Source: a virus. From it: DNA of 64,000 bases. The notes below the pieces were generated by a model. That model saw only the letters and a program-made list of their open reading frames with translations. It had not been told where the DNA came from and did not search any database. The DNA is taken from IMG/VR virus record IMGVR_UViG_3300020204_000006; one strand, 5' to 3'. Of this stretch, positions 1-26,541 are shown piece by piece. The translations under genes were made by a program, and so were the position numbers. Numbering within the stretch: the first letter of the stretch is position 1; every line of letters starts with the position of its first letter.

Positions 1-960
1 AGTGGCACCTATGTGATTCCTGATGGCGCTCGTCGTCTTTGGATCACGCTTTGGGGCGCAGGCTCCGGCGGTGGTGGTGGTGCTAGACAGGGTACTGGTG
101 TTGCTGCTTATGGTGGCGGCGGCGGAGGTGGAGGCATGGTAAACATGGCTTATTATTTTGTTGAGTCTTTGGGGTTGGCAGGAGAAAGTTATGCAGCTGG
201 CTCTCCGACCGTGCGTGGTGGAAGTCGTGGAAAAACTTTAACGGTGGTGATAGGGGCAGGCGGTTCGGGTGGAAACGGAGGCGCAAGTGATACTTCAAGC
301 GGATCAGATGGAGGCAGAGGTGGCGATTCTTGGGTGAGCGTTACAGGATTTACTTTTTCAGCAAATGGTATGATTTCTGCTTATGGTGGTGCTAATTATA
401 CTAATCCTTTTGGCAGAGGTGGGTCTACAACTTCTGGTTCTGGAGGCACTCCTGCATCTGCGTCGAATGGCGCGTTGATAAACGGAGTGCCAAGCGCACA
501 GACATTAACAACATATTCTTGGAACGGAACAAATAGCGCAATTACAACTCTAACTGCTCAAACTGTTTATAGTATTGGTAATAATGGAGGTACTGCTGGG
601 GGTGGCATATCAACCGGAAATGCAGGACAAGCCGGTGGAAATATTGCATATGGAACTGCTCAGACAATCACAGTTGTTTCAAACCCTCTCTTGAGCACAG
701 CGGGTGCTGCCATTATAAAAACTGGTGGGGCAGCAAACAGTGCAGCTCCTCCATTTAATCCAATTGGTATTCATGCGGCTTATAGTAATGGATTTGGAGG
801 TGTTGGAGGCGGAGCCGGAACCAGTACAAGTGGAGCAAACGGAGAAAACGGTTGGCGAGGCGGCGGTGGTGGTGGTGGTGGAGCATCAAGAAACGGACAA
901 ACTGCTGGCAATGGTGGTAGTGGTGGAAATGGCTATTGTTTAATAGTTGCATTGAGGTAA
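1..960 (+). CDS. Glycine-rich tail fibre/whisker-like protein, paralogue 1 (5' truncated by window edge)
   Basis: Frame is open from base 1 (SGTYVIPDGARRLWITLWGAGSGGGGG), matching the EFDxSGTxxIP..GAGGxGGGG start of the next two genes; C-terminal GWRGGGGGGGGASRNG motif shared with them. Confidence 0.7.
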   Translation, partial: SGTYVIPDGARRLWITLWGAGSGGGGGARQGTGVAAYGGGGGGGGMVNMAYYFVESLGLAGESYAAGSPTVRGGSRGKTLTVVIGAGGSGGNGGASDTSSGSDGGRGGDSWVSVTGFTFSANGMISAYGGANYTNPFGRGGSTTSGSGGTPASASNGALINGVPSAQTLTTYSWNGTNSAITTLTAQTVYSIGNNGGTAGGGISTGNAGQAGGNIAYGTAQTITVVSNPLLSTAGAAIIKTGGAANSAAPPFNPIGIHAAYSNGFGGVGGGAGTSTSGANGENGWRGGGGGGGGASRNGQTAGNGGSGGNGYCLIVALR

Positions 961-963
961 TTT

Positions 964-1941
964 ATGAATCATGGTTTTTTTAGTTTTCCAAGTTTGCTGA
1001 AAGACGATCCCTCCATCAAACTCCAAGAGTTTGATACAAGTGGAACCTTTGTTATACCGTCTTTTGCCAGAAGGCTATATGTGCTTTTGGTTGGTGCTGG
1101 TGGTTCTGGTGGTGGAGGTCCAAGAGTTACTAGCGGCTCAAGCAGTTGCGGCGGTAGTGGTGGCGCTGGTGGAAGATATTTTATAGATGATTTTTCTTTA
1201 GATATGGTTTTTTGCAAACCTGGTATGACTTTATCTGTTGTTATTGGAGCCGGAGGCTCAGGTGCTGGAACTGGTGCAACTGCGGATGGAACAAATGGTC
1301 TTGGCGGCAGCTCAGGTGGAAATTCCTCAATCACCATAACAGGGAAACGTGGCAACATGTTTGTTGCTTACGGCGGCGCTGCTGGTGCTGGCGGGACAAA
1401 TTCAACCAGTTCAACGGGAGCGGCTGGTGGCACCAGCTGGTGTTTTTCTGGAGTTTCTGGTACTGGTCACGGTGGAGGAAATGGTGCTGACACAAATTTT
1501 CCACAGGGACCAGGAGCCACTCCAAATCCTGCCAGTAGCACAGGATTATGGAATTGGCAATCAAATGGTGGATGTGGCGGCGGCGGTGTCAACACATCCA
1601 ACACTGCATCTAGCGGTGGAGCCATCACAGCTGGATCAGCAGTCTGCAATAATTATGCCACCATATATGGTGGAGGTAATAACGTTATACAGCCCGGTCA
1701 ACCAAACACTGTTGCAGTCAGTTTTGGATCTGGTGATTCTTATGGGTTTACATTGGCCGGTGCCTATACTCCGGGACTTGGAGGAGTTGGCGGCGGTGGC
1801 GGAGCAACGACTGCCGGTGGAAGAGGGAGGCACGGATGGAGAGGTGGCGGCGGTGGCGGTGGTGGCGGCGCAAGAAATGGGTTTAATGGTGGTGACGGCG
1901 GTAATGGTGGTGATGGGTACTGTGTTTTAATTGCTTATTGA
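964..1941 (+). CDS. Glycine-rich tail fibre/whisker-like protein, paralogue 2
   Basis: MNHGFFSFPS...EFDTSGTFVIP...VGAGGSGGGG start; VVIGAGGSG; C-terminal GWRGGGGGGGGGARNG..GGDGYCVLIAY. Confidence 0.75.
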   Translation: MNHGFFSFPSLLKDDPSIKLQEFDTSGTFVIPSFARRLYVLLVGAGGSGGGGPRVTSGSSSCGGSGGAGGRYFIDDFSLDMVFCKPGMTLSVVIGAGGSGAGTGATADGTNGLGGSSGGNSSITITGKRGNMFVAYGGAAGAGGTNSTSSTGAAGGTSWCFSGVSGTGHGGGNGADTNFPQGPGATPNPASSTGLWNWQSNGGCGGGGVNTSNTASSGGAITAGSAVCNNYATIYGGGNNVIQPGQPNTVAVSFGSGDSYGFTLAGAYTPGLGGVGGGGGATTAGGRGRHGWRGGGGGGGGGARNGFNGGDGGNGGDGYCVLIAY

Positions 1942-1950
1942 GGAACATTC

Positions 1951-2871
1951 ATGAACAATGGTTTTTTCAACTTCCCATCTGTAAACGATCCTGCTCTTTC
2001 GGATATTAAAGAGTTTGATGTTAGCGGTACTTACAGAATACCAGCAGGAACTTCATTGATATATGTTTTTGCAGTTGGCGCTGGTGGAGGCGGTGGATCA
2101 GGAAGAAGAAGAGCGACGGGGAGTGTTCAATCCTGCTTTGGTGGAGGGTCGGGCGCAGGCGGATCCGTGGTTCAAATGGTGTATTTAATACAACAAATTC
2201 CAGGAGATTTGTTGTATATTGAAATAGGTGCGGGTGGAAATGGTGGGGCTGGCAGAACAACGGACGGTACGAATGGCGCCGCAGGGACTGTCGGTGGTGG
2301 CACTTCTGTCAATTTAGATTCCTCTGGAAATTATAAACTATTGAGGGCCGTTGGTGGTGGCCCCGGGGGTGGTGGCAGCATCTCATTTGGAGTTGCTGGA
2401 ACAAGTCGTCTGAACGTTCAATACGGATATCATAGCGCCAGCCAGAGTGCAGGTTCTGGCGGAGTAACCACTGGTACTAACACTTTATCGGTGGCTCAGT
2501 ATTTTGCAAAAGGTGGTGCTGGTGGCGCTGGTCTCAGTGGCGCGTCTACTTATGGAACTGGAGGAAACATTGGCATCTCTTCATCTTTGGTTCTGGGAAA
2601 TCCTGACTATTCAATTGGCACTTTGCTTGCTGGAATGGCTGCCGATGCTGGAACTGCTGCTCCAAGCTCGACCGGATATTTTTTGCTCCCATATACTGGT
2701 GGCTTGGGTGGACCCGGCGGCGCTGGAGGAAACACCGTTGCGGCTTCAGCAGGAGGTGCTGGCTGGAGGGGCGGCGGTGGCGGCGGCGGTGGTGCGTCAA
2801 GAGATGGAGTAAATAGTGGAGCTGGAGGTAGAGGCGGAGATGGTTATGTTGCAATATTTTGTTACAAATAA
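1951..2871 (+). CDS. Glycine-rich tail fibre/whisker-like protein, paralogue 3
   Basis: GAGG SD upstream; MNNGFFNFPS...EFDVSGTYRIP; same C-terminal GWRGGGGGGGGASRDG motif. Confidence 0.75.
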   Translation: MNNGFFNFPSVNDPALSDIKEFDVSGTYRIPAGTSLIYVFAVGAGGGGGSGRRRATGSVQSCFGGGSGAGGSVVQMVYLIQQIPGDLLYIEIGAGGNGGAGRTTDGTNGAAGTVGGGTSVNLDSSGNYKLLRAVGGGPGGGGSISFGVAGTSRLNVQYGYHSASQSAGSGGVTTGTNTLSVAQYFAKGGAGGAGLSGASTYGTGGNIGISSSLVLGNPDYSIGTLLAGMAADAGTAAPSSTGYFLLPYTGGLGGPGGAGGNTVAASAGGAGWRGGGGGGGGASRDGVNSGAGGRGGDGYVAIFCYK

Positions 2872-6239: not shown

Positions 6240-6581
6240 ATGGAGAAGTATATTCTTATTTTCCAAGAAAAATCTAGGGTAAAATTTTCTTCTATAAAAA
6301 AATTCGTAAAAGATAAATACGGTTTATCTATTGATACTGTTTATTTGAAAGAATTGAAGAAAATAAGGCCTTTGGAGTTTATATGCATATCTTCTTTGGA
6401 AGAAAGATATGCAAGATACTTTATGTCATCTTTTGATGACAGTCAGTTTTTGTACTGGAAGGTTAATTACTCAGGAAAATTGATTGAAACTAGTAGCGCG
6501 GAAACTTCTTATTTAATAGGTGGATCAATATGTCTTACCGATATAATGAAATTAATGAAAATGGAATATAAAAATGGCTAA
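6240..6581 (+). CDS. Hypothetical protein directly upstream of and overlapping terL (small terminase not demonstrable)
   Basis: 113-aa ORF overlapping the terL start; position only. Confidence 0.65.
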   Translation: MEKYILIFQEKSRVKFSSIKKFVKDKYGLSIDTVYLKELKKIRPLEFICISSLEERYARYFMSSFDDSQFLYWKVNYSGKLIETSSAETSYLIGGSICLTDIMKLMKMEYKNG

Positions 6582-8457
6582 GGCTGGAAGAAGATCAGAA
6601 CTAACTAACGTTTTTGACGACTTAAAAAAGTCTATTAGCGATTCTTCAGTGGAATCATTTTCTTCTGCTTCTGGTATACCAAGTATTATTGACTTTATAG
6701 AAAACAAAGATTGGCTTGGTCTGCCTCACAGAGAAAATCCAATTAATCTTTATCCTATGCAAAAAATAGTTCTTAAAAGTTTTTATAAAAACTCTATAGG
6801 GAACGAGAATCTTGTATTATCTGATGATGAAATAGATATATGTAAAAAACACGGACTTGATGATGATGAAAATGGAAATCTTCTTAGTAAGATGGAGTCA
6901 AATGAGACTTTCAGAGAATTAATTCTTGTTTGGGGTAGGCGCAGTGGGAAAGATTTTGTAATTAGTATTCTTGCTTGCTATGAGGCTGCAAAATTACTTG
7001 AAGCTCCTGGTGGAGATCCTTATAGACTTTATAAATTAGGAACTGGTGCACCATTTACAATTATAACTATAGCAAACAGTTCAGATCAGGCAAAAATTCT
7101 TTTTGATGAAATAAAAGATAAAATTATAAACTCTCCTTATTTTAAGGATAAGTTTTATCCAGAAGCTATTCTTGCAGACCAGATAAGGCTTTTGACTCCC
7201 GCAGACAAAAAGAAAAATGAAGAGCTCGAGGCAAAAGGTCTCCCTAAAAGTCTTGGATCTGTAATTATAAAGTGCGGTCACTCAAATTCTGATTCACTTG
7301 CAGGTATATCTTGTTACACTCTTCTTTTTGATGAGATTGGCTTATATAAACAAACTGCTGGCTCTTCTGGCGGAGAAAGTTTATATAGAACTCTTACTCC
7401 TGCAACAACTACATACATAAGAGAAGTTGAATCAGTTGATAGAAATGGTAATAAATTATTAAAAACAGTTTATGATGGCAAGGTGATATGCATATCTTCA
7501 CCAAGAGGTAAGGATGGTGTTTTTTACGAGTTATTCAGGACGACTCCTCAAGTTAAAGACAGATTGGCTTGTAAATTGCCAACGTGGGCAGTTAATCCAA
7601 AGCAAAAAAGAGATCAATTAAGATCTATGTTCTCTCAAATGACTGAAGAAGAATTTAATATGGAATTTGGCGCTGAGTTTTCTGGGGTTTCAGGTCATAC
7701 ATTCTTTAATAGAGATGTTGTTGAAAAATGTTTTTATCTTAACATGAAGATGAAGGATTATGGAGAACCCGGATTTAGATATTTTTGCCATTTAGATCCT
7801 GCTACTTCTTCTCATAATTATGCACTTTCTGTTGTTCACAAAGAAAACTTTATTAATGAAACAAACGGTAAGGTTGACTGGAGAATAATTGTTGATCATG
7901 TTCACTATTGGACTCCAAGTCAAGACAAACCAATAGTCACAGAAGAGATAGATAGTTATATAATATCTTTAAACAGAAAATTCTTTTTAAGTTTAGTGAC
8001 TTTTGACCAATGGAATTCTGCATCTAGTATAAAAAATTTACAAAAACATGGGATTCCAAGCAAACTTACAAGATTTACAAAAAGATATAAAATAATATTA
8101 TATGATAATTTTTATGATCTTGCATGTAGTGGTAGGCTTGCCATCCCTCATCATGAATTATTAAAAAACGAGATGTTGTTTTTGCAGAGAAAATATATGC
8201 CTAATGGATATAGAGTGTACGCAAAAAAAGATGGCTTTGTAAGAACTGATGACCTTTGTGACTCTTTGGCTGGGGCTTGTTATACTGCGGTGTACCACGA
8301 AGCTGAAAAGCTTCCATCTGGCAGATTAGCAAAGATGGCAATTATTCCTGGACAAAATGAGGTTATTTGGAGAGGAATGCAGGGACAGGTGATGGGAGTT
8401 GGCAACGGATCTTCAATAGTAAATAATATTGAAAAGAGGACACCATTTAAATTTTGA
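6574..8457 (+). CDS. terL: Terminase large subunit
   Basis: Walker A VWGRRSGKD, Walker B LLFDEIG, motif III ISSP, RNase H-like nuclease HLDPA, TFDQWNS, DDLCDSLAG. Confidence 0.93.
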   Translation: MAKAGRRSELTNVFDDLKKSISDSSVESFSSASGIPSIIDFIENKDWLGLPHRENPINLYPMQKIVLKSFYKNSIGNENLVLSDDEIDICKKHGLDDDENGNLLSKMESNETFRELILVWGRRSGKDFVISILACYEAAKLLEAPGGDPYRLYKLGTGAPFTIITIANSSDQAKILFDEIKDKIINSPYFKDKFYPEAILADQIRLLTPADKKKNEELEAKGLPKSLGSVIIKCGHSNSDSLAGISCYTLLFDEIGLYKQTAGSSGGESLYRTLTPATTTYIREVESVDRNGNKLLKTVYDGKVICISSPRGKDGVFYELFRTTPQVKDRLACKLPTWAVNPKQKRDQLRSMFSQMTEEEFNMEFGAEFSGVSGHTFFNRDVVEKCFYLNMKMKDYGEPGFRYFCHLDPATSSHNYALSVVHKENFINETNGKVDWRIIVDHVHYWTPSQDKPIVTEEIDSYIISLNRKFFLSLVTFDQWNSASSIKNLQKHGIPSKLTRFTKRYKIILYDNFYDLACSGRLAIPHHELLKNEMLFLQRKYMPNGYRVYAKKDGFVRTDDLCDSLAGACYTAVYHEAEKLPSGRLAKMAIIPGQNEVIWRGMQGQVMGVGNGSSIVNNIEKRTPFKF

Positions 8458-16530: not shown

Positions 16531-18810
16531 ATGGCAAAGAAAACAGAACAACAAATTAGTAGTGATTCGCTTAAGGACCAGAAAATGATTAATTCTGCCG
16601 TTGTAAATATGCCTCTAACAAAAGCTGCTCAGTATATGGGCGGTAGTGCATCTACCATATTTACTCAGCCCATGTTCTTTTCTCCGCTTCACACGCCTCA
16701 AAGTTGGCAAATTGCAAGCAAGAGAAAAGAAGTCTACCAGTGGTCTAGGTTCTATTATGAAAATGAACCAAAAGCTGCGGCAGGAATAGACTTTTACGCA
16801 GGCTTCCCAATGAATGGTTTTACTTTGGAATGCAAGGACAAAAAAGTACTTGCATTCTATGAGCATTTAATAGATAAAATAAATTTGAGTTATTGGTTTA
16901 GAAAAATATCTCACGAATATTTTTTACTTGGAGATGTGTTTGTTTTTACTGAAGTTGACTGTCCTCATTGCGGTGGTCATGGCGTTTTACCGGATGGCCG
17001 TCAGTGCAACCATCCTGATGGTACATTCAAGAGAATTCTTATTTTAAATCCTGATTTCATAGAAGTAAATAATTCTCAGCTTGCAGAAAAACCAACAATT
17101 GCTCTTATTCCTGATGATGATTTAAAGAAAGTTGTTCAACACAAAAAGCCCAAAGAAGTATATGAGAATATACCTCAAAACGTAAAAGACATGATATCTT
17201 CTGGCGCTGCCATACCTCTTTCATCAAGATGTGTGTCTCATTTGAGACACAAAGGCTCTCCTTACGGAGTCTATGGAGAGAGTCTTCTAAGAAGACTGTT
17301 TATGGTAATAGCATATAAAACCAAGCTGATGACAGCTAATTGGATAATGGCTGAAAGGCACATTCTTCCAATAAGAATAGCAAAAGTTGGAAATGATAAT
17401 CGTCCAGCTAGCGAATACGACATAGCTGATGTTCAGAGTCAACTTGCCTCTGTTGCAAATGACCCAAACTTGACAATAGTTACTCATCATGCTTTTGAAT
17501 TAATACACGAAGGTGCTACTGGAAAGATTCACGATATTGCTTCTCAGCTTGAGTACGTTGGTAAAGAAATGCTTGATGGACTGATGTTGAATCAGGGTCT
17601 TCTTAATGGTGAGCTTGCCGGGTACAGTAGCGTTGCCATAGGCGCAGAAACCATGATACGTAGACTTGAAACTTGGCGTCAAGAGCTTGCTGAATGGTGT
17701 GAGAAAAATATATTTCTTCCTATAGCACAGATGCAGGGTTTTGTTGATGTTTCTAAGTCTGAAATGATTAACGAAACAGTTTATCTTTATCCCAAGGTAA
17801 AGTGGAACGATCTCAAGCTCAGAGACAATAGTCAGTATTTGCAGAGTCTTTCGCAGCTTCACGACAAGGGTATAATATCAACACAAAAACTACTACAAGA
17901 ATTTAATATAGATTACGATCAAGAGATTAATAGAATAAGAGAAGAACAAATAGTCAGTGGTAAGGGAGGTCTTGTTCAGCAAGGGGCTGGTGGCGGTGGT
18001 GGTGGATTAGATCTTGGTATGGGCGGCGGTGGCCTTGATCTTGGTTTAGGTGGTGGAGGCGCACCTGGAGGAATGCCAGGAGATATGGGTCTTGGTGGAT
18101 TGGACATGGGAGGTGGCGCTCCGATGGGAGGTGCTCCCGCAGGAGGTGCTCCCGCAGGAGGTGCTCCCGTAGGAGGTGCTCCCGTAGGAGGTGCTCCCGT
18201 AGGAGGTGCAGTTGCTTCTCAAGAAGAATCTTTAAATTTGATAAAAGAAGCTCAGCAGCAACAGGGTATTAATCCAGATTTTAGAGTTTATAAAAAAGGT
18301 AAACAACCTAAAAAGGAAAACATAAAAGACCAGAAGGATCAAAAGCTTGCTCCAATATATTTGACAAAACCTGAACAAAAATTATATAATATAATTTCTT
18401 CTTTAAAATTGCCCTATAGAGTATTTGCTCAATACAAACAGGCAATACCAGGCCAAACGAATCCCTATCTTTTAGATTTTGCTATTCCTGACCTTGGTTT
18501 AAACCTAGAGGCTGATGGTGATTTTTGGCATTCTGATCCAGAAAGTATACAAAGAGATAAGGAAAGAGACTATAGACTCGCATCTATGGGGTGGAGAGTA
18601 ATTAGATTAAGAGAGGACGCACTTAATAATAGGGCAGATGTTTGCGAAACTATCATTAGAAATAATATACAAGATATTATTAATGAGAAAATGAAAAAAA
18701 GGTCTAATTCAGATGAAAATGAAATTATTATTAAGATATCATCCAATGATATGAAGGATGATATAGTAATAATTAAGAATTCTTTTGAATATGATCAAAA
18801 TAGCGGCTAA
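16531..18810 (+). CDS. Portal protein with Zn-finger-like insertion, Gly/Pro linker and C-terminal DUF559/Vsr-like endonuclease domain
   Basis: Position between terL block and protease/capsid; portal-like features (GDVFVF, ILILNP, PYGVYGESLL, PIRIAKVG, ISTQKLLQEFNIDYDQE); C-terminus PEQKLY..YLLDFAI..LEADGDFWH..RDKERDYRL..GWRVIRL. Confidence 0.85.
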   Translation: MAKKTEQQISSDSLKDQKMINSAVVNMPLTKAAQYMGGSASTIFTQPMFFSPLHTPQSWQIASKRKEVYQWSRFYYENEPKAAAGIDFYAGFPMNGFTLECKDKKVLAFYEHLIDKINLSYWFRKISHEYFLLGDVFVFTEVDCPHCGGHGVLPDGRQCNHPDGTFKRILILNPDFIEVNNSQLAEKPTIALIPDDDLKKVVQHKKPKEVYENIPQNVKDMISSGAAIPLSSRCVSHLRHKGSPYGVYGESLLRRLFMVIAYKTKLMTANWIMAERHILPIRIAKVGNDNRPASEYDIADVQSQLASVANDPNLTIVTHHAFELIHEGATGKIHDIASQLEYVGKEMLDGLMLNQGLLNGELAGYSSVAIGAETMIRRLETWRQELAEWCEKNIFLPIAQMQGFVDVSKSEMINETVYLYPKVKWNDLKLRDNSQYLQSLSQLHDKGIISTQKLLQEFNIDYDQEINRIREEQIVSGKGGLVQQGAGGGGGGLDLGMGGGGLDLGLGGGGAPGGMPGDMGLGGLDMGGGAPMGGAPAGGAPAGGAPVGGAPVGGAPVGGAVASQEESLNLIKEAQQQQGINPDFRVYKKGKQPKKENIKDQKDQKLAPIYLTKPEQKLYNIISSLKLPYRVFAQYKQAIPGQTNPYLLDFAIPDLGLNLEADGDFWHSDPESIQRDKERDYRLASMGWRVIRLREDALNNRADVCETIIRNNIQDIINEKMKKRSNSDENEIIIKISSNDMKDDIVIIKNSFEYDQNSG
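18127..18201 (+). repeat. 5 x 15-nt tandem repeat GGAGGTGCTCCCG(C/T)A encoding GGAP(A/V)
   Basis: Two units with GCA, three with GTA, in frame in the portal linker. Confidence 0.95.
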
Positions 18811-19204
18811 AAGAATTAAGGACAGAAACATTTCATGGAAAGAGATGTATTCTGAAAGAACACAGCCATTAAAAAATAGATATGAATCTGAATTGGGCAA
18901 TGGCTCCTATTACAGATGGGAGGGTCACGACTACACAACAAATAGTGATTATTATGTTGTTTGTTCTCCAGCAAGAACTAAGAATCTTGATAAGATGTAT
19001 TTTGCTGGGATTAAAAAACTTCCGCCAATATACAAAAGAAGTATCACAAAAGTTTATAGTCCCTACGGAAAATATTTTCAAAATATTGTTTCAGCATTGA
19101 CTTATCTAAATAAAAAATATAATGTACCGTTTCCAAAAAATCAATTTAATTATACTATTCTTCATCTTCAAAATGTGGAAATTCCAAGAACTGTAAAGGC
19201 GTAA
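18785..19204 (+). CDS. Hypothetical basic, aromatic-rich protein
   Basis: 139-aa ORF between portal and protease genes. Confidence 0.7.
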   Translation: MNMIKIAAKRIKDRNISWKEMYSERTQPLKNRYESELGNGSYYRWEGHDYTTNSDYYVVCSPARTKNLDKMYFAGIKKLPPIYKRSITKVYSPYGKYFQNIVSALTYLNKKYNVPFPKNQFNYTILHLQNVEIPRTVKA

Positions 19205-19214
19205 CGAATGGAAA

Positions 19215-19324
19215 AAAGATCAATTAATTTTAATCCTTCTTAAATTGGAGTCCTCAATGTGCCTCAGCAAAAGATCAATTAATTTTAATCCTTCTCAAAT
19301 TGGAGTCCTCAATGTGCCTCAGCA
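19215..19324 (+). repeat. 55-nt tandem direct duplication with one mismatch (19215-19269 / 19270-19324)
   Basis: AAAGATCAATTAATTTTAATCCTTCT(T/C)AAATTGGAGTCCTCAATGTGCCTCAGCA occurs twice head-to-tail. Confidence 0.97.
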
Positions 19325-22300
19325 TTGGGAAGAGTTTAATTTAAATTCAATAATAAAGTCTGCAGCACTAAATGAAGAAAACAAAAATGGATCTTTTGAG
19401 GATTTTGATCTCAAAGAAGCAATAAATAAAAATCCAGAACATCTTTTTGTAAAAGTTTTTGCAATAAAAGAAAATGAGATGAATGACAACGGAGATTTCT
19501 TTTCAAAAGAAGAGCTTCAAAAAGCCGCAAAAACATTTATTGGTGTTCCTGTTTTCGTAAATCATCAAAATGATGATATAGAAAAAGCAAGAGGCAAAGT
19601 TGTTCACGCATGGTACGATGAGTCAAAAGGCGGTATTTACACCATAAACATGGTTGATAAAATTGCCTATCCAAGACTTGCTCGTGGCATAGAAACTGGT
19701 GTTATAACAGGTACTTCAATGGGCTGCAGTGTTCAGCATTCTATTTGTAGTGTTTGTCACAATCAGGCTTCTACCGCTAAAGATTTTTGTTCTCATATAA
19801 AAGAGAGAAAGAAAAAGAAGTTTTCTGGTGAATGTGAATGCGAATATCATAAAAATGGCAATTATGACGTGTGTCCATTATGTGGCGGGAAAAAAGGTGA
19901 AAAGAAAAAGATAAAGCATAAAGACCAAACTATATATGAGCACAACTATGGTGTTAAGTTTATAGAAGACAGTTTTGTTGTAAATCCTGCATGTCATGAT
20001 TGTCTTGTGGCTGAAATCCTAAATTCAGACGGCATTAATAAAAAGGTTGCAGAACTTTCTGAATCTATAACAAAACTAGCATCTAGCGTTCCTGTAAACG
20101 AGCAGAGTCATATTTGCGAAAATGGGATGTGTTCTTTAAGAAAGGTTGCTGGAGTTTCGGAAATAAACGAGTTAAATCAGGCTATGAATTTAATGGAGAG
20201 AGTTGCTCGTTCACTTATGGCCCAAAAAGAAAGAGTTAGCCTAGAATATGTTAGTGATATTGTTAAAACATTGGCCGATGTTCAAAAAATATCAGACGAA
20301 CTTATAGAAATGGGTTATGCCAAATTGCCAAGTCCAAGTGTTCATGATGCAAGCGTTGGCACTAGTTCTGCTGCATCTCCAATAAATAAAGAAAGAATAG
20401 GGCAACTTTCTCCATCTCCCGCTGCAATGCAAACATTTCCTCAGCCTGCAATTCAGCAGGCAATTCAGCCAAAACCATCTCCTCAGCCTGCTCCTAATAC
20501 TGTATCTCCTATGGAAACATCATATGGAGATGATGTTGGAAGGGTTGTAAAACCAAATATTTCTCCAAAAGGTGCTAATTCAAGGGAGGAATTTACAAAA
20601 ATATCAGAAAATTTAATTAACAGTCTACAGTCTGTTTATTCTAATGGGAATCTAATAAAAAATCAAATAACAAATATGTCAGATCAAATCTTAAATAACA
20701 AAATCGTCCAAATAGACAGAGATAATCTATCTGTTATTATTTCTGCTGATGGCGATGGTGAAATAAAAATTGCTGAATGCAGAGACGGAAAAATTATGAA
20801 GTTGTCTGATATAGACTTATTTGATTCTGAAATGCAGGATCTCATAAGGGGCAATTCTGCTAAGGCAGCAGAATTGATTATTGAATCGATGATAGGTAAC
20901 AAACAGGAGATTAAGGAATCCATGGAAAACAATGAAAATATAAAAATAGCTCAGTCAAAAGATACTATTACCGAAAATCAGCTTAATGGCTCTGACCTAA
21001 AGCTCCATCCAAGATGGAAAGAGGGAGAGCATTACACTGCCATTACCGAAAGTTCTGAGCAGCTTGGAGCAAAGTCTCCTAAGTCCAAAGATGTTTCCAG
21101 TGATTCTCCACAGGTTAGAAAAGGAACATATTCTGAAATTACCGAGCTACAGCTTGCTAACAACAAGAATGGTTTCCTTGCTCGTTGGGGAGATTTTCCA
21201 ACCGTTATTACCGAGGGTCAATGGACAGAAATGTCTAGAGAAGTCTTTGCAAAAATGCCTTCTGATTGGACTAGTTACGTCCAAACAGGTCAACTTGATT
21301 CCTTAAGAGACTCTCATAGCTGGAAAGAGCCAACTGTTGTCACCGAATCTCAATTAAGAGGCTCTTCCAAGAAAACTGCATCTTCTGTAAATGAAATGCT
21401 TAAGTCTGCATCCGAAGCTGTTGTTGATTCAATCGTAACTTATGGTCTTTCTGGAGAACAACTTAAGAGAGTTGTTGCTTTTGTAAAAAGCAATCCACAC
21501 AATCACCTCAAAGCTTCTTATATGACTCTTGTAAATTCTGCTCCATGGACAGTTGATATGAGACAGGATGTAAATGCCAAAAATAGATTCTTTAAGAAGG
21601 CCAGCTCATCAGATATGGATCCTGTTGATTCTTTCATAGGTGCCATGTCTGACAATATCGGTTCTCACAGGGCAGAAGATTTTATAGATGCTGTTAGTTT
21701 CATAGTAAATGACAGTAGTGCTTGGAAGGTTGCAAACGACAAGGCCGAAGAAAGAGTTGCTAGCATTAACAGTGAAGATGAAATATCTTCCAAAGAAGAT
21801 ATCTTTAGAAAGGCATTTGCAGAAAATGAGCTTCCAGAAGATGGAATGTTTAAGGTTTGCTGCACAATCAAGGATGATATTGGAATAGATCCATCTGACA
21901 ATAAGAATTTCTTGAAAGCCGTATTTGCTTTTGCTCAAGATTCAGTATCTGACAGATTTGGAGATATAGACATAATACCAGTAAATGTTGATATAGATGA
22001 GGAGAACGGTCTTGTTGAATGCACTGCCAAGCAGGCATCAATGCTTGATGATTCCGAGCTTGAAGCTTGGAATAAGGTCGCTTCTTCCTTAAATGAAGAA
22101 TCATCAGAGTCTGAAGATTCTGACATGGTAAGAACTGCTTCTTCTGATAACTCAAACTCAAGAAGAGCTCGTATACTTGATGAGCTTGATAGGCTTGAAA
22201 AGCAGGCTCAGCTTGCTGGTGGTCAGATGCCAACGGCTCTAAATCCAGCTGGTATGGGTGCTGGAATGCAAATTCCTGGTGCTGGTGCTCCTGCTGGCGC

Positions 22301-25007
22301 ACCTCCAATTGAATCCTTAACAGCTGGTTCTCCTGCTGGTGGTGCTGCAGATCCACTTTCCGGTTTAGACATGGGCATGGATGATAAAAAGTCTGATGAC
22401 GAAGAAGAAAAAGCCAAGCCTGGTGCAGGGTACCCCATGCCTGCTGCAGCTGTTTGCGTAATTTGTGGAAACAATGATGTTGATGTTGGTGGTGGTAAGG
22501 CTAACTGCAAAGGTCCAGGATGCGGAGCCAACTATACAATTAAGGTTGTTCCAGATGCATCTTTGCTTGACAAGATAATGGATGGGGACATTGATGATAG
22601 CGATACTAAGCCAAATTCTTCTTCTGACGTTGAAAAGGGTCTTGGAGGAGAAGGTCCTGCTGGTCCAGCTCCTGCAATGCCTCCAATGGCAGCTACTGCA
22701 AAGCTTAAGGTTGACACTCTCAACAAAATAGCTAAAAAGACTCCATTTGGTTCAATAAGTCCAGTTACTGGTAGTAATAATACCATGAAGGTTGGTGGAA
22801 GTACGTGGAAGTGCCTTGACAGTGGTCAAGAATACATAGTCCGTGTTGCTGCCGATTCAAAAGATCCCAAATCTGTTTGGGCTCAGTGGGAATGGATACC
22901 TGAATTTAAGCGCGTTGAATGCTCTTCTTGCTCTAGGAAAAAGGCAAACTTTGTCAATAATCTTGGAAAAATGGGTATTAGTGAAAGCACATTTGATTCC
23001 ATGAATCTTAATGACAAATCTTCTGTTATACTTGCAATGAAGGAAAAGGGACTTTTGAATGAAACAAAAGTAGCATTCAATTCAGAAGACTCAAAGAATG
23101 TTCTTGGTCTATTCAAGGCAGCTTTCTCCACAGGAAATAAATTCCCAATGGAAACATGCCTTGAAAAACTTGCAAGAAGATTTGGCGAGGATGCAGTATC
23201 TATGAGTGGACCATGTGAGGGTAAGAATCTTGCTGATTGCGTTTGCTCTAGTCTTGCTAATGAAAAAATGTATTCAACAGGTCTTGCGAATAAGATTGCT
23301 TCTATATGGGTTGAAAAAGAAGCTGGTTCTGAATGTATAGAAGATTTTGTAAGAGAGGGAATGACAATAAAGCAAGCTTCTGCTTCTTGTGAGCAACTTA
23401 GAAACAAGTATATATCTGAAGAGGAGTTACTTGCTGAGGAACTTACAAGAGTCGCTACCGGAGACATGATGGTTGCCGAAGATGCTGTAGCAGAATCAGA
23501 CCCTTTTAGCTCAGAAATGGGATCTTCAATGGATTCTGATATGTCATCTTCTGACGAACAGAATTCTGGTTCTGTTGATCTTGACATTCATATGTCAGAC
23601 GCCTCACTTGAAAATCTAGAGAAGAGCCTTAAGGAAGTTCTTGATGCATTAGCTCCTCTAACAGATGGTTCTGACGATGGATCAAAAACAGAAGATGTTT
23701 CTGAAAATACTTCAGAAGAATCTGAGCATGTTGAAGACTCTATGGACTCAGAAGAAGATGATTCTATAATGGATGAAATCCCTGATGCAAATGCAAATAA
23801 TGAAGAAATGATGTCAGAAGACAAGGATGCTGCTATGTTAAAGCATGCTCCAGAAAGTATGGTCAAGGAAGAGGGAGAATATGCAATGAAAGAGTCAGAG
23901 TCACTTGGCGAATCTCTTAAGAGAGGTCGCATTGTGGGCGTAAACAAGATTAACCTTGATGTTTCCAAGCTTGCTCAGGCATTGAGCAAATCTGCTGGCG
24001 ATAAGAAGGTTCAACTTTCTAACGCTCAGGATCAATCTGAAATAGGAACTATTTCTTCTGGTAAGGCTCTTAAATCTGAGCATGGAGAAGGCTTTGATGC
24101 AAAGGGTCCCAAAGTTCCTGGTGGTCATGGCAAGGCTCTAAAGTCAGAGCATGGTGATGGCTTTGACGATACTGCTTACCCTGAAGTTCCTGTTAATGGT
24201 CCAGCCTTGGAGGGCGAGTCTGAATATAAGCCTGAAAAGGGTAATATGATGACTGGCGGTCAAAACGGAAGTGGTTCTTCTTCAACTGGCAAGTACCAGA
24301 TGACAAGAAGTGCTTTTGAAGAAAGTCTTGCTAAGCTTGCCAAGGAGATGTCTCTTTCTGTAAATATAGTACAGGAAGATCCATCTATACAGCCAGTAAA
24401 GGGCAAGGACTCATTGACCGTAGATGGATTTGATCCAGTTGAAAATGGTGGCAAGCCTCTCTCAAGTGAGCATGGCGAAGGTTTCAATGCAGAAACCCCA
24501 TCAATTCCAGCTGGTGAAGGTTCTATGGGTCACGAAAAGGAAATGGGATTAACTCCAGAAAAACAAGAACAAATAACCGGTGGTCAGCTTGGGGCTGGCT
24601 CATCGACTAAGAAGAGTAATAAACCGAAGACTGCAACTGCTTCTAGCAGTAAAGAGTCCAACGAGTCAAGCAAAGATGCCGCAATTAAGCTTGCAGGTAA
24701 AATGGTAGAGAGTAAAATAATCTCTTCCAATGATCTTCCAAGTAAGATTGCTGAACTTGAGAGATATGAAGTATCTCAGATCAGAGACATTGAAAAAGCA
24801 ATGTTTAGGCAGGCTAGCGTGGCTCAAAAGGGACTTGTGACGGCTTCCAAGGGCGTAGAGCGTCCTCTGGTTATCGGTGAGACAAGTAGCAACAGGAACG
24901 GTTATACGGATCTCCGTTCAAAAATATCTTCTCTATTCAGTCTGCAACATCAGGTAGATGCTGCAGAGGAGACAGATAATGTTCAGATTAGGAAAACGTT
25001 TAAATAA
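19245..25007 (+). CDS. Very large prohead protease/scaffold-like head protein (start uncertain: ATG 19257, or ATG 19208 if the duplication is an artefact)
   Basis: N-terminal NDNGDFF..FIGVPVFVNH..ARGKVV..ARGIETGVITGTSMG resembles HK97/assemblin-type prohead proteases (His and Ser motifs); long acidic and Cys-cluster regions; gene order portal-protease-decoration-capsid. Confidence 0.7.
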   Translation: MESSMCLSKRSINFNPSQIGVLNVPQHWEEFNLNSIIKSAALNEENKNGSFEDFDLKEAINKNPEHLFVKVFAIKENEMNDNGDFFSKEELQKAAKTFIGVPVFVNHQNDDIEKARGKVVHAWYDESKGGIYTINMVDKIAYPRLARGIETGVITGTSMGCSVQHSICSVCHNQASTAKDFCSHIKERKKKKFSGECECEYHKNGNYDVCPLCGGKKGEKKKIKHKDQTIYEHNYGVKFIEDSFVVNPACHDCLVAEILNSDGINKKVAELSESITKLASSVPVNEQSHICENGMCSLRKVAGVSEINELNQAMNLMERVARSLMAQKERVSLEYVSDIVKTLADVQKISDELIEMGYAKLPSPSVHDASVGTSSAASPINKERIGQLSPSPAAMQTFPQPAIQQAIQPKPSPQPAPNTVSPMETSYGDDVGRVVKPNISPKGANSREEFTKISENLINSLQSVYSNGNLIKNQITNMSDQILNNKIVQIDRDNLSVIISADGDGEIKIAECRDGKIMKLSDIDLFDSEMQDLIRGNSAKAAELIIESMIGNKQEIKESMENNENIKIAQSKDTITENQLNGSDLKLHPRWKEGEHYTAITESSEQLGAKSPKSKDVSSDSPQVRKGTYSEITELQLANNKNGFLARWGDFPTVITEGQWTEMSREVFAKMPSDWTSYVQTGQLDSLRDSHSWKEPTVVTESQLRGSSKKTASSVNEMLKSASEAVVDSIVTYGLSGEQLKRVVAFVKSNPHNHLKASYMTLVNSAPWTVDMRQDVNAKNRFFKKASSSDMDPVDSFIGAMSDNIGSHRAEDFIDAVSFIVNDSSAWKVANDKAEERVASINSEDEISSKEDIFRKAFAENELPEDGMFKVCCTIKDDIGIDPSDNKNFLKAVFAFAQDSVSDRFGDIDIIPVNVDIDEENGLVECTAKQASMLDDSELEAWNKVASSLNEESSESEDSDMVRTASSDNSNSRRARILDELDRLEKQAQLAGGQMPTALNPAGMGAGMQIPGAGAPAGAPPIESLTAGSPAGGAADPLSGLDMGMDDKKSDDEEEKAKPGAGYPMPAAAVCVICGNNDVDVGGGKANCKGPGCGANYTIKVVPDASLLDKIMDGDIDDSDTKPNSSSDVEKGLGGEGPAGPAPAMPPMAATAKLKVDTLNKIAKKTPFGSISPVTGSNNTMKVGGSTWKCLDSGQEYIVRVAADSKDPKSVWAQWEWIPEFKRVECSSCSRKKANFVNNLGKMGISESTFDSMNLNDKSSVILAMKEKGLLNETKVAFNSEDSKNVLGLFKAAFSTGNKFPMETCLEKLARRFGEDAVSMSGPCEGKNLADCVCSSLANEKMYSTGLANKIASIWVEKEAGSECIEDFVREGMTIKQASASCEQLRNKYISEEELLAEELTRVATGDMMVAEDAVAESDPFSSEMGSSMDSDMSSSDEQNSGSVDLDIHMSDASLENLEKSLKEVLDALAPLTDGSDDGSKTEDVSENTSEESEHVEDSMDSEEDDSIMDEIPDANANNEEMMSEDKDAAMLKHAPESMVKEEGEYAMKESESLGESLKRGRIVGVNKINLDVSKLAQALSKSAGDKKVQLSNAQDQSEIGTISSGKALKSEHGEGFDAKGPKVPGGHGKALKSEHGDGFDDTAYPEVPVNGPALEGESEYKPEKGNMMTGGQNGSGSSSTGKYQMTRSAFEESLAKLAKEMSLSVNIVQEDPSIQPVKGKDSLTVDGFDPVENGGKPLSSEHGEGFNAETPSIPAGEGSMGHEKEMGLTPEKQEQITGGQLGAGSSTKKSNKPKTATASSSKESNESSKDAAIKLAGKMVESKIISSNDLPSKIAELERYEVSQIRDIEKAMFRQASVAQKGLVTASKGVERPLVIGETSSNRNGYTDLRSKISSLFSLQHQVDAAEETDNVQIRKTFK

Positions 25008-25668: not shown

Positions 25669-26541
25669 ATGTCTTATAACAAAGATGGTTTAACTCACAA
25701 TGAAAAGGAAGCAGTGATTGCTCAAGCACTCTCCACTGAGGAGGGCCGCGTGGCTCTTGCTCAGGCAATGGTTGAGCCAATTCGTCGTTCTCTTGAATAT
25801 CAGGCCATTGGTCGTAAGCTCCTCATGGTTGATGAGCTTCCCCAGGGTGCATTGCCCCGCTACGAGCGCGATGTTGCTTCTATAGCAACAGTAGTAGCTC
25901 GTCAGGGAGCAGTTCCTGATCAAATCCAAGAGGGTGAAGAAGTGCTCGTCCCAACCTTCGAAATCGCTGCTCACCCAACGATTCGTCTCTCTGAAATCAA
26001 GGCTCGTCGTTTCTACATTGTAGACCGCGCTCAGATCAAGGCCAAAGAGGCTATTCAGAAGGAAGAGGACAAGAACATCTTTGCAGCTCTTATCTTTGCT
26101 GCAGAGAATCGTGGCGATCAGGTTGTTGAAACAACCGCTGATCTCACCACGACTGCCCTCAATACTGCCTACAGATTCGTGGAGGAGCATGATCTTGTTG
26201 CAAGCAAGGTTGTCTGCCATCCCAAGCAGTATGCTACAATCAGAACCTTTGGAAAAGATTTCTACGATGAGGCAACAACTCGTGAAATCCTTACAACTGG
26301 TCTGTATGGCCACCTTTGGACAGCTGACATACACGTTAGTAGTCAGTTGAACTCTGTCAAGGTCATAGTCACTTCTAGCCCAGACACCGTTGGTGCCTTC
26401 CCAATTCGTCAGGACATTACTGTCCTTCCCGCAGACGATCCAAAGAAGCTACGCCTCGGCTGGGTCATCTATGAGGAAGTCGGAATCGTTGTAATGAATG
26501 ATTACGCTCTCTCTCTCATCCAAGTTGGTGGAACCACCTAA
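25669..26541 (+). CDS. Major capsid protein, HK97 fold (short, encapsulin-like size)
   Basis: Strong SD, strongest codon bias in the window, follows protease and decoration genes, ends at a strong terminator; MVEPIRRSLEYQAIGRKLLMVDELPQG..YERD, FEIAAHP, GWVIYEEVGIVV resemble HK97-type capsids. Confidence 0.85.
   Translation: MSYNKDGLTHNEKEAVIAQALSTEEGRVALAQAMVEPIRRSLEYQAIGRKLLMVDELPQGALPRYERDVASIATVVARQGAVPDQIQEGEEVLVPTFEIAAHPTIRLSEIKARRFYIVDRAQIKAKEAIQKEEDKNIFAALIFAAENRGDQVVETTADLTTTALNTAYRFVEEHDLVASKVVCHPKQYATIRTFGKDFYDEATTREILTTGLYGHLWTADIHVSSQLNSVKVIVTSSPDTVGAFPIRQDITVLPADDPKKLRLGWVIYEEVGIVVMNDYALSLIQVGGTT

Follow-up and report, generated by a model that had tools for sequence, protein, structure and literature searches.

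A predicted nuclease domain of the Vsr/EDxHD type, tethered to the portal protein in a clade of very large environmental phages

The stretch of viral DNA analysed here (IMG/VR record IMGVR_UViG_3300020204_000006; 64,000 nucleotides, hereafter the window) encodes, at positions 16531..18810 of the plus strand, a 759-residue protein (P0001) in which a portal core and a nuclease-like domain are read in a single open frame. The gene product serves as portal protein in a giant freshwater phage that has not been cultivated. The Pfam model Portal_Mu (PF06074) matches residues 224-459 (E 4e-8; 33.3 bits against a cut-off of 23.9) and DUF559 (PF04480) matches residues 612-710 (30.6 bits against a gathering cut-off of 20.6). 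Apart from these two, a Pfam scan of the whole fusion protein returned only MTES_1575, below its own Pfam threshold, and no MuF (Phage_Mu_F-like) domain was found in it. PHROG 16240, annotated as ‘portal protein’, covers residues 5-462 (E 2e-45), and the PHROG matches of the nuclease part are to the homing-endonuclease families 559 and 3339. The nuclease domain occurs only once in the window. The original prediction, made from the letters of the window, had described such a fusion and had considered that a stop-codon sequencing error might have created it; the 759-residue frame is uninterrupted, and the presence of the same domain in relatives rules out such an error, i.e., the fusion is real.

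The protein is organised into consecutive parts, all on the plus strand. The portal core comprises residues 1-478 (16531..17964), of which residues 1-47 are predicted to be disordered and residues ~60-478 to form the portal fold, with the crown helices last. It is followed by a disordered, net acidic linker rich in Gly, Pro, Ala and Met (residues 479-565; 17965..18225), within which a 15-bp tandem repeat present in 5.5 copies (GGAGGTGCTCCCGTA; 18127..18209; Tandem Repeats Finder, 98% matches) codes for GGAP(A/V) units. A short helix, SLNLIKEAQQQ, containing a K-x-A-Q motif is predicted with low confidence at residues 566-576 (18226..18258; DSSP). Next comes a basic arm (residues 584-607, FRVYKKGKQPKK...; 18280..18351) with a K(K/R)GK-type motif in relatives; residues 584-612 of the window protein include nine Lys/Arg and three Asp/Glu. 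The nuclease domain of the Vsr/EDxHD (DUF559) type spans residues 608-730 (18352..18720), as delimited by Pfam, AlphaFold2 (AF2), Foldseek and residue conservation, and a variable C-terminal tail, predicted to be disordered, closes the protein (residues 731-759; 18721..18807). The full-length AF2 model (m75d45a33a7d8; 68 homologues) is confident at residues ~60-478 and ~610-730; its pLDDT (predicted local distance difference test) exceeds 90 over most of residues 60-478 and falls below 50 at residues 1-47, 480-565 and 730-759. Across relatives, the tail past the GWRV(I/L)R motif measures 55 to 127 residues. The motifs on which the earlier description had been built (IKEAQ, LDF, EADG, FWH, RD..RD and GWRVIR) can all be found in the translation, and so can its repeat, which reads GGAPM followed by five GGAP(A/V) units. 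The interval to which it had assigned the feature, 18127-18660, does reach from the repeat start to approximately residue 710; however, the feature is larger and extends from 17965 to the gene end at 18810, with the nuclease fold continuing to ~18720.

When modelled in isolation, the domain is predicted by AF2 with a pLDDT above 90 over construct residues 31-150 and shows an alpha-beta-beta-beta-alpha-beta core. Foldseek ranks I-Bth0305I first (3r3p, E 1e-5), followed by PvuRts1I, E. coli Vsr (1cw0/1vsr) and the DUF559 protein 3hrl, and a sequence search of the PDB yields the same order (3r3p with E 2.5e-4, then Vsr). In alignments of 58 and 115 homologues, no variation is seen at E615, D649, E660, H667, G687 or W688, and conservation at D662, D676, R679 and D680 is 90-98%. 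The predicted catalytic residues are E615 (codon 18373-18375), D649 (18475-18477), E660 (18508-18510), D662 (18514-18516), H667 (18529-18531) and D676 (18556-18558), which, in a HMMER alignment read with the published residue roles (PMC3239194), fall on Vsr E25, D51, the F62 position, H64, H69 and D97, respectively. Thus, Vsr H64 is replaced by Asp and Vsr F62 by Glu in the portal domain; it should be noted that EDxHD enzymes have one more acidic residue where Vsr has F62 (PMC3239194). The zinc-binding Cys/His insert that has been described for Vsr after the F-W-H segment (PMC3239194) is absent, only SDPESIQ lying between WH667 and RD676, and the NCBIfam Vsr model (TIGR00632) scores 20.4 bits and does not reach its cut-off of 97.85. 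Given the lack of this insert and a score so far below the Vsr cut-off, the domain is, as judged from its sequence, a DUF559/EDxHD-like enzyme and not a true Vsr. Sequence and model together describe a predicted nuclease with a single active site, which belongs to the Vsr/EDxHD branch of the PD-(D/E)XK fold and has a complete catalytic set. A two-copy complex prediction of the domain scored 0.00 and has no bearing on whether it is a monomer or a dimer.

Two characterised enzymes invite comparison. I-Bth0305I, the EDxHD prototype (PMC3239194), superimposes with a Foldseek TM-score of 0.75 on the target, has in common with the portal domain the Vsr-like core without a zinc site, and shares the E/D/H/D set (here E615, D649, H667 and D676) as well as the additional acidic residue in place of Vsr F62. 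However, I-Bth0305I is intron-encoded, sporadic and equipped with an N-terminal NUMOD/helix-turn-helix (HTH) region, whereas the portal domain, joined to a structural protein and fixed throughout its clade, is preceded by a basic arm only. Indeed, no NUMOD/HTH DNA-recognition region was detected upstream of the nuclease by Pfam or AF2, only the disordered linker and the basic arm. The portal domain also differs from EDxHD homing endonucleases in general in being an in-frame C-terminal part of a portal and not the product of an intron, an intein or a free-standing mobile gene. E. coli Vsr (1cw0, 1vsr; TIGR00632) has the same fold (Foldseek E 2e-4), and its E25, D51, H69, D97 and F-W-H segment align with the portal domain, whereas its zinc insert, H64 and F62 are not retained. 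Vsr nicks one strand and may therefore serve as a model for single-strand cleavage by the portal domain.

The fusion is not confined to the window. A search of 5.8 billion proteins returned 484 matches, and the portal and PF04480 occur together in all of the best 120 of these. With the core alone, a HMMER scan of 1.84 billion cluster representatives gave 1445 matches (336 below 1e-30). Down to ~37-40% core identity, essentially all complete 50%-cluster representatives have the nuclease according to a hidden Markov model (HMM) of the C-terminal domain, whereas none of the portals beyond that limit, which carry other tails, has it. It had been considered that the domain might be absent or degenerate in relatives; instead, every complete member of the clade has it, with the catalytic positions kept. 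Two apparent exceptions (P0174 and P0196) contain frameshift-like sequence inside the Gly-rich linker: both proteins end soon past the core, their last residues being rich in Trp and Arg, as is typical when a repeat of Gly codons is translated in the wrong frame, and their endings are either assembly errors or real linker frameshifts. Two other relatives, P0267 and P0272, are short fragments. No free-standing close homologue of the domain was found; the six matches among proteins of 102-326 residues are fragments that begin within the core or linker, apart from a chimera carried by a 977-bp contig. The clade is large and environmental and consists of very large phages, with contigs of up to ~548 kb.

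In a tree built from the core only, the presence of the nuclease corresponds to one change, on a branch with 100% support in the Shimodaira-Hasegawa-like approximate likelihood ratio test (SH-aLRT), and the result is the same when all columns are used. Because the root of this tree is not known, one gain and one loss both fit. Pairwise distances of the core and of the nuclease are correlated (r 0.83), and none of 2000 permutations in a Mantel test gave a value as high. These sequence comparisons show that the nuclease has been inherited together with the portal core and that the history of the fusion amounts to a single change. The ratio of nonsynonymous to synonymous substitution (dN/dS, Nei-Gojobori) was calculated from seven non-independent pairs, which belong to two groups of close relatives. 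Nuclease and core have the same value, 0.007, and the basic arm (0.08), the linker (0.15) and the C-terminal tail (0.28) have higher ones; within these pairs, purifying selection on the nuclease is thus as strong as that on the core.

Further support for the importance of the active site comes from inteins. The window copy has none: neither a Cys/Ser...HN splice junction nor Hint blocks could be found in its sequence or by Pfam, and the frame runs through the E-A-D-G motif, in agreement with the original prediction, which had argued from the lack of splice residues that the domain is not an intein endonuclease. However, in at least 13 relatives (P0102, P0107, P0113, P0114 and nine further representatives), an intein lies within the catalytic motif of the nuclease. 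Its insertion point is identical in these proteins (...I-E | C...H-N | C-D-G-x-x-W-H), between the invariant Glu and x-D-G, and Pfam recognises Intein_splicing and LAGLIDADG_3 at that point, with DUF559 resuming at the next residue. Because inteins typically persist at sites that are intolerant of change, their position provides independent support for the view that the E-x-D-G motif matters and that the site cannot easily change. The intein inside the nuclease catalytic motif is new here, as is a conserved 137-residue open reading frame (ORF) downstream of the portal gene, which is described below. The portal family as a whole appears to be an intein hot spot: many representatives among relatives P0123-P0240 are 1100-3003 residues long, with the core in 2-6 stretches, and such split cores imply, from their sequences, several inteins in one portal gene.

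The location of the domain can be approached through the portal core. A structural comparison with more than 40 solved portals (VIA-align) gave Z-scores of 16-20 over model residues 59-479, up to the C-terminal ends of those chains. In solved portals, the C-terminal end forms the crown, which faces the capsid interior. Because the core aligns up to these interior-facing ends, the tether and the nuclease should lie inside the head, as deduced from the model and from homologous structures. Placement of the nuclease on the capsid-interior face, as had been proposed initially, is therefore supported by the AF2 model, the structure alignment and portal topology, all of which have the linker leaving the portal at its crown end. 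Moreover, the T4 portal tolerates fusions at its C-terminus (PMC9026906). At the opposite end of the protein, residues 27-35 (16600-16640) contain a motif, P-(L/I)-T-(K/R)-x-(A/S)-Q, that is kept in 116 of 272 collected sequences and resembles the K-x-A-Q found ahead of the nuclease in the closest subclade.

A comparison with 50,697 deposited phage genomes gave as best match to the fusion protein the portal gp14 of phage G (Bacillus/Lysinibacillus, Donellivirus gee), which has the same portal fold and is 28.7% identical over residues 31-473 (E 3e-64); the match concerns the core only, and no record covers 80% or more of the query. The tail of gp14 consists of more than 100 residues of Gly/Pro/Ser-rich low-complexity sequence, but it has no folded domain or nuclease (L001:2839-4782), and in the core tree the one branch that divides the portals leaves phage G on the side without nuclease. 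A long interior tail may thus predate or outlive the nuclease. Next to another nuclease-less portal, that of the 485-kb uncultured phage LR745208.1, lies a 427-residue ORF (L002:519-1802, minus strand) that by eye resembles TnpB/OrfB of the IS200/IS605 type.

In 119 relatives in which it could be measured, the linker has a median length of 80 residues and consists of 41% Gly, 79% Gly/Pro/Ala/Met and 12% Met; acidic residues number approximately five and basic ones fewer than one per linker, 76 of the 119 having no Lys or Arg at all. Across the clade, its length is typically ~60-120 residues, longer in some members, and at least 57 Gly-rich residues are found everywhere. The basic arm, (K/R)(I/V)x(K/R)(K/R)GK, follows the linker in 141 of 156 relatives. 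Linker units vary by lineage (GGAPA, GGMPGGMDLG, GGDMGG and others), a pattern that fits repeated slippage. The linker had been called expandable at the outset, and gain and loss of short units among relatives agree with this; however, the one-unit difference seen in the 99% identical relative P0002 (four GGAP(A/V) units instead of five) could be an assembly effect, because short-read contigs break within the 15-bp repeat. Indeed, Logan contigs from four lake-water runs have flanks 100% identical to the window and break inside the repeat at 18156-18200. The IKEAQ segment, in turn, can hardly be regarded as a general site at which the nuclease is clipped off: the K-x-A-Q motif is present at the linker-nuclease junction in only 34 of the 156 relatives, in which no other clade-wide cleavage motif was found.

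How might such a protein function? The domain most likely descends from an EDxHD-type homing endonuclease of a phage, whose catalytic module would have been taken up at the 3' end of the portal gene and then domesticated. A domesticated homing endonuclease had already been named as an alternative, and it is a reasonable one because the nearest solved relative, 3r3p, is a homing endonuclease. As to its present role, we tentatively favour the explanation, suggested by the modelled architecture, that the nuclease remains on its tether and works on DNA at the portal's inner mouth. Twelve nuclease domains would remain attached inside each capsid, since neither a clade-wide cleavage site nor a free form was found, and the length and composition of the tether are always kept. 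A disordered tether of ~80 residues would have a reach of several nm (~30 nm if fully stretched), which would allow each domain to reach the axis above the channel and crown, where all DNA passes. The basic arm and the nuclease would bind DNA, and the acidic tether would keep away from it. The enzyme would cut one strand, in the manner of Vsr nicking, or else a particular DNA structure or unmodified DNA, and not phage DNA in bulk, either during genome packaging or as the genome starts to leave. Resolution of branched DNA from inside the capsid, which had also been proposed, seems unlikely because a branch could not pass the portal channel.

Several points weigh against this explanation. When a staphylococcal nuclease fusion enclosed in T4 heads is activated, infectivity is destroyed within minutes (PMC9026906). 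By analogy, since T4 does not survive a non-specific nuclease shut in with its genome, a resident nuclease must be selective or held in check, and the need for such selectivity or inhibition is a burden on any proposal that places it beside packaged DNA. At the same time, the nuclease domain has no recognisable DNA-recognition module. The interior location is drawn from homologous structures, and the estimate of selection from few and related pairs of sequences. The Gly/Pro-rich tail of phage G, which lacks a nuclease, indicates that such a tail may have a role of its own, in which case the nuclease would be cargo. Finally, a head-maturation protease is encoded nearby, and cleavage is thus possible.

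Portals are regarded as passive rings that serve as a channel, a sensor and a docking site, and the cutting of DNA in packaging is assigned to the terminase. Extra nucleases that work with the portal and terminase in packaging are known, namely T4 endonuclease VII and the HNH proteins of the HK97 type; however, these are separate proteins outside the capsid, whereas the portal nuclease is covalently attached at the interior end. It is possible, albeit doubtful, that the portal itself is an enzyme, i.e., that twelve tethered nickases process the genome during packaging by relieving torsional stress or by cutting unmarked DNA. In the former case, strand breaks would let stress escape while a very long genome is being packaged; in the latter, host or satellite DNA without the mark of the phage could not use the capsid. 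To our knowledge, a catalytic role of the portal has been assigned in no studied phage. Full-text literature searches yielded no description of a portal-nuclease (DUF559, Vsr, endonuclease) fusion, and none is mentioned in the jumbo-phage review PMC7824862 or in a second one, PMC13282480. Nonetheless, an environmental clade keeps an intact-looking nuclease on what is predicted to be the interior end of its portal as strictly as it keeps the portal fold; because of this strictness, about twelve nucleases should, according to the model, sit inside every capsid. If the domain is active in the head, the presence of a nuclease beside a genome that it does not destroy would imply selectivity or control, might explain how very long genomes are handled in packaging, and would represent a natural, stoichiometric placement of an enzyme (12 per virion) inside a capsid.

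A different fate of the domain is conceivable, in which the portal tail would have the sole task of bringing exactly twelve nuclease domains into the prohead; the head-maturation protease would then cut the linker, and the free nuclease would be ejected with the DNA to act against host, plasmid or rival-phage DNA or against a defence. We consider such capsid-targeted cargo unlikely, yet it is the best of the remaining explanations. A protease-like domain is encoded two genes downstream, and the linker is long and disordered, hence accessible to a protease; the closest subclade has the K-x-A-Q helix at the junction and a similar T-K/R-x-A-Q near the portal N-terminus. There are also precedents: internal proteins of T4 and capsid-targeted fusions are processed and delivered (PMC9026906), and MuF proteins, which are associated with portals, often bear a nuclease toxin at their C-terminus, and a small gene usually lies behind theirs (PMC5576092), just as a conserved small ORF follows the portal gene here. 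However, the K-x-A-Q motif is restricted to the minority of relatives mentioned above, and no other clade-wide site takes its place; the small ORF is lacking in five divergent nuclease-bearing lineages and belongs to no known immunity-protein family. Moreover, twelve nucleases without a DNA-targeting module would be a weak weapon, and a spacer needed only for cleavage would not have to keep its Gly-rich minimum length everywhere. The MuF polymorphic toxins of temperate phages (PMC5576092) are likewise located in the head interior, associated with the portal and provided with a C-terminal nuclease and a small gene directly downstream. However, their toxin domains are polymorphic and swapping, whereas the portal nuclease is single, fixed and co-diverging with the core, belongs to a giant and probably lytic phage, and is not accompanied by a MuF domain.

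It is quite improbable that the nuclease works in the cytoplasm as a selfish or competitive enzyme that cuts the portal-region DNA of co-infecting relatives, as intronless homing or as interference, with the portal serving as an expression vehicle and as protection from loss. Such a role would account for the homing endonuclease I-Bth0305I being the best match in both sequence and fold, and for the PHROG matches to homing-endonuclease families. Homing endonucleases of the Vsr-like kind are frequent in the genes of phages, portal inteins included (bioRxiv 10.1101/2025.01.02.630785), and nuclease-based competition between jumbo phages is documented in work cited in PMC13282480. However, homing endonucleases are sporadic, yet this domain occurs in every complete member of the clade, arose or was lost by one change in the tree and co-diverges with the core. 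Furthermore, it has no NUMOD or HTH recognition domain, there are no nuclease-less alleles within the clade into which it could home, and it is under purifying selection equal to that of an essential structural core.

Even less probable is a grip or valve that does not cut, in which the domain would bind the first-packaged end or retain the genome and its residues would be kept for metal-dependent binding. The basic arm and the interior position suit contact with DNA, and a permanently active nuclease beside the genome would be dangerous. Nevertheless, the complete Vsr/EDxHD set, with six positions invariant or at least 90% conserved, is the pattern that an enzyme should show. Nuclease folds that have come to serve binding only have usually lost some of these catalytic residues, which also argues against a grip, as does the fact that inteins target the catalytic motif. 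Finally, the joining of two genes by a sequencing or assembly error, for which the position of the junction in a low-complexity repeat where short-read contigs break could be cited, deserves practically no credence and was rejected, since hundreds of independent assemblies (JGI, ENA, NCBI, Tara and Logan) have the same single frame, the flanking contigs of the four runs are identical to the window, and the domain is found in every complete clade member.

The portal gene belongs to a head module encoded on one strand, together with genes for the terminase large subunit (TerL), a protease-like protein and the major head protein. Directly 3' of the portal gene, and overlapping its end, lies the 137-residue ORF (18791..19204, plus strand), which tblastn detected in 70 of 80 IMG/VR loci with an identity above that of the nuclease domain. 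It is absent in the five divergent nuclease-bearing loci, where only ~300 nt lie ahead of the protease gene. No Pfam, PHROG or NCBIfam match was obtained for this ORF, and a protein atlas gave only sub-threshold leads (0.88, ASCH-like). It could encode a portal-associated structural protein or an inhibitor, i.e., a possible partner of the portal or its nuclease. Further downstream, a 1920-residue protein (19245..25007, plus strand) has an N-terminus similar to head-maturation proteases (PHROG 2774, and PHROG 18299 over residues 63-261). At 22200-22500 and 22900-23000, this protein is rich in Ala, Gly, Pro and Met and contains a GLDMGM motif like the portal linker, below the threshold of 75% Gly/Pro/Ala/Met. 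The major head protein is encoded at 25669..26541 (plus strand; PHROG 2522, E 3e-60). TerL is encoded upstream, at 6574..8457 (plus strand; PHROG 2, 9, 17415 and 2699); it had no match in Pfam, NCBIfam or a PDB sequence search, and by eye it shows a Walker A motif (GRRSGKD), a Walker B motif (LLFDE) and nuclease-type motifs (HLDPATS and TDDLCDS). The window comes from a phage of a lake-water metagenome; it is present in twenty public runs, all of them a possible source of the same DNA, and no RNA dataset was found among these. The G+C content of the first 2 kb of the window (1-2000) is 0.50, compared with 0.28-0.40 over most of its length and up to 0.45 at 22-26 kb.

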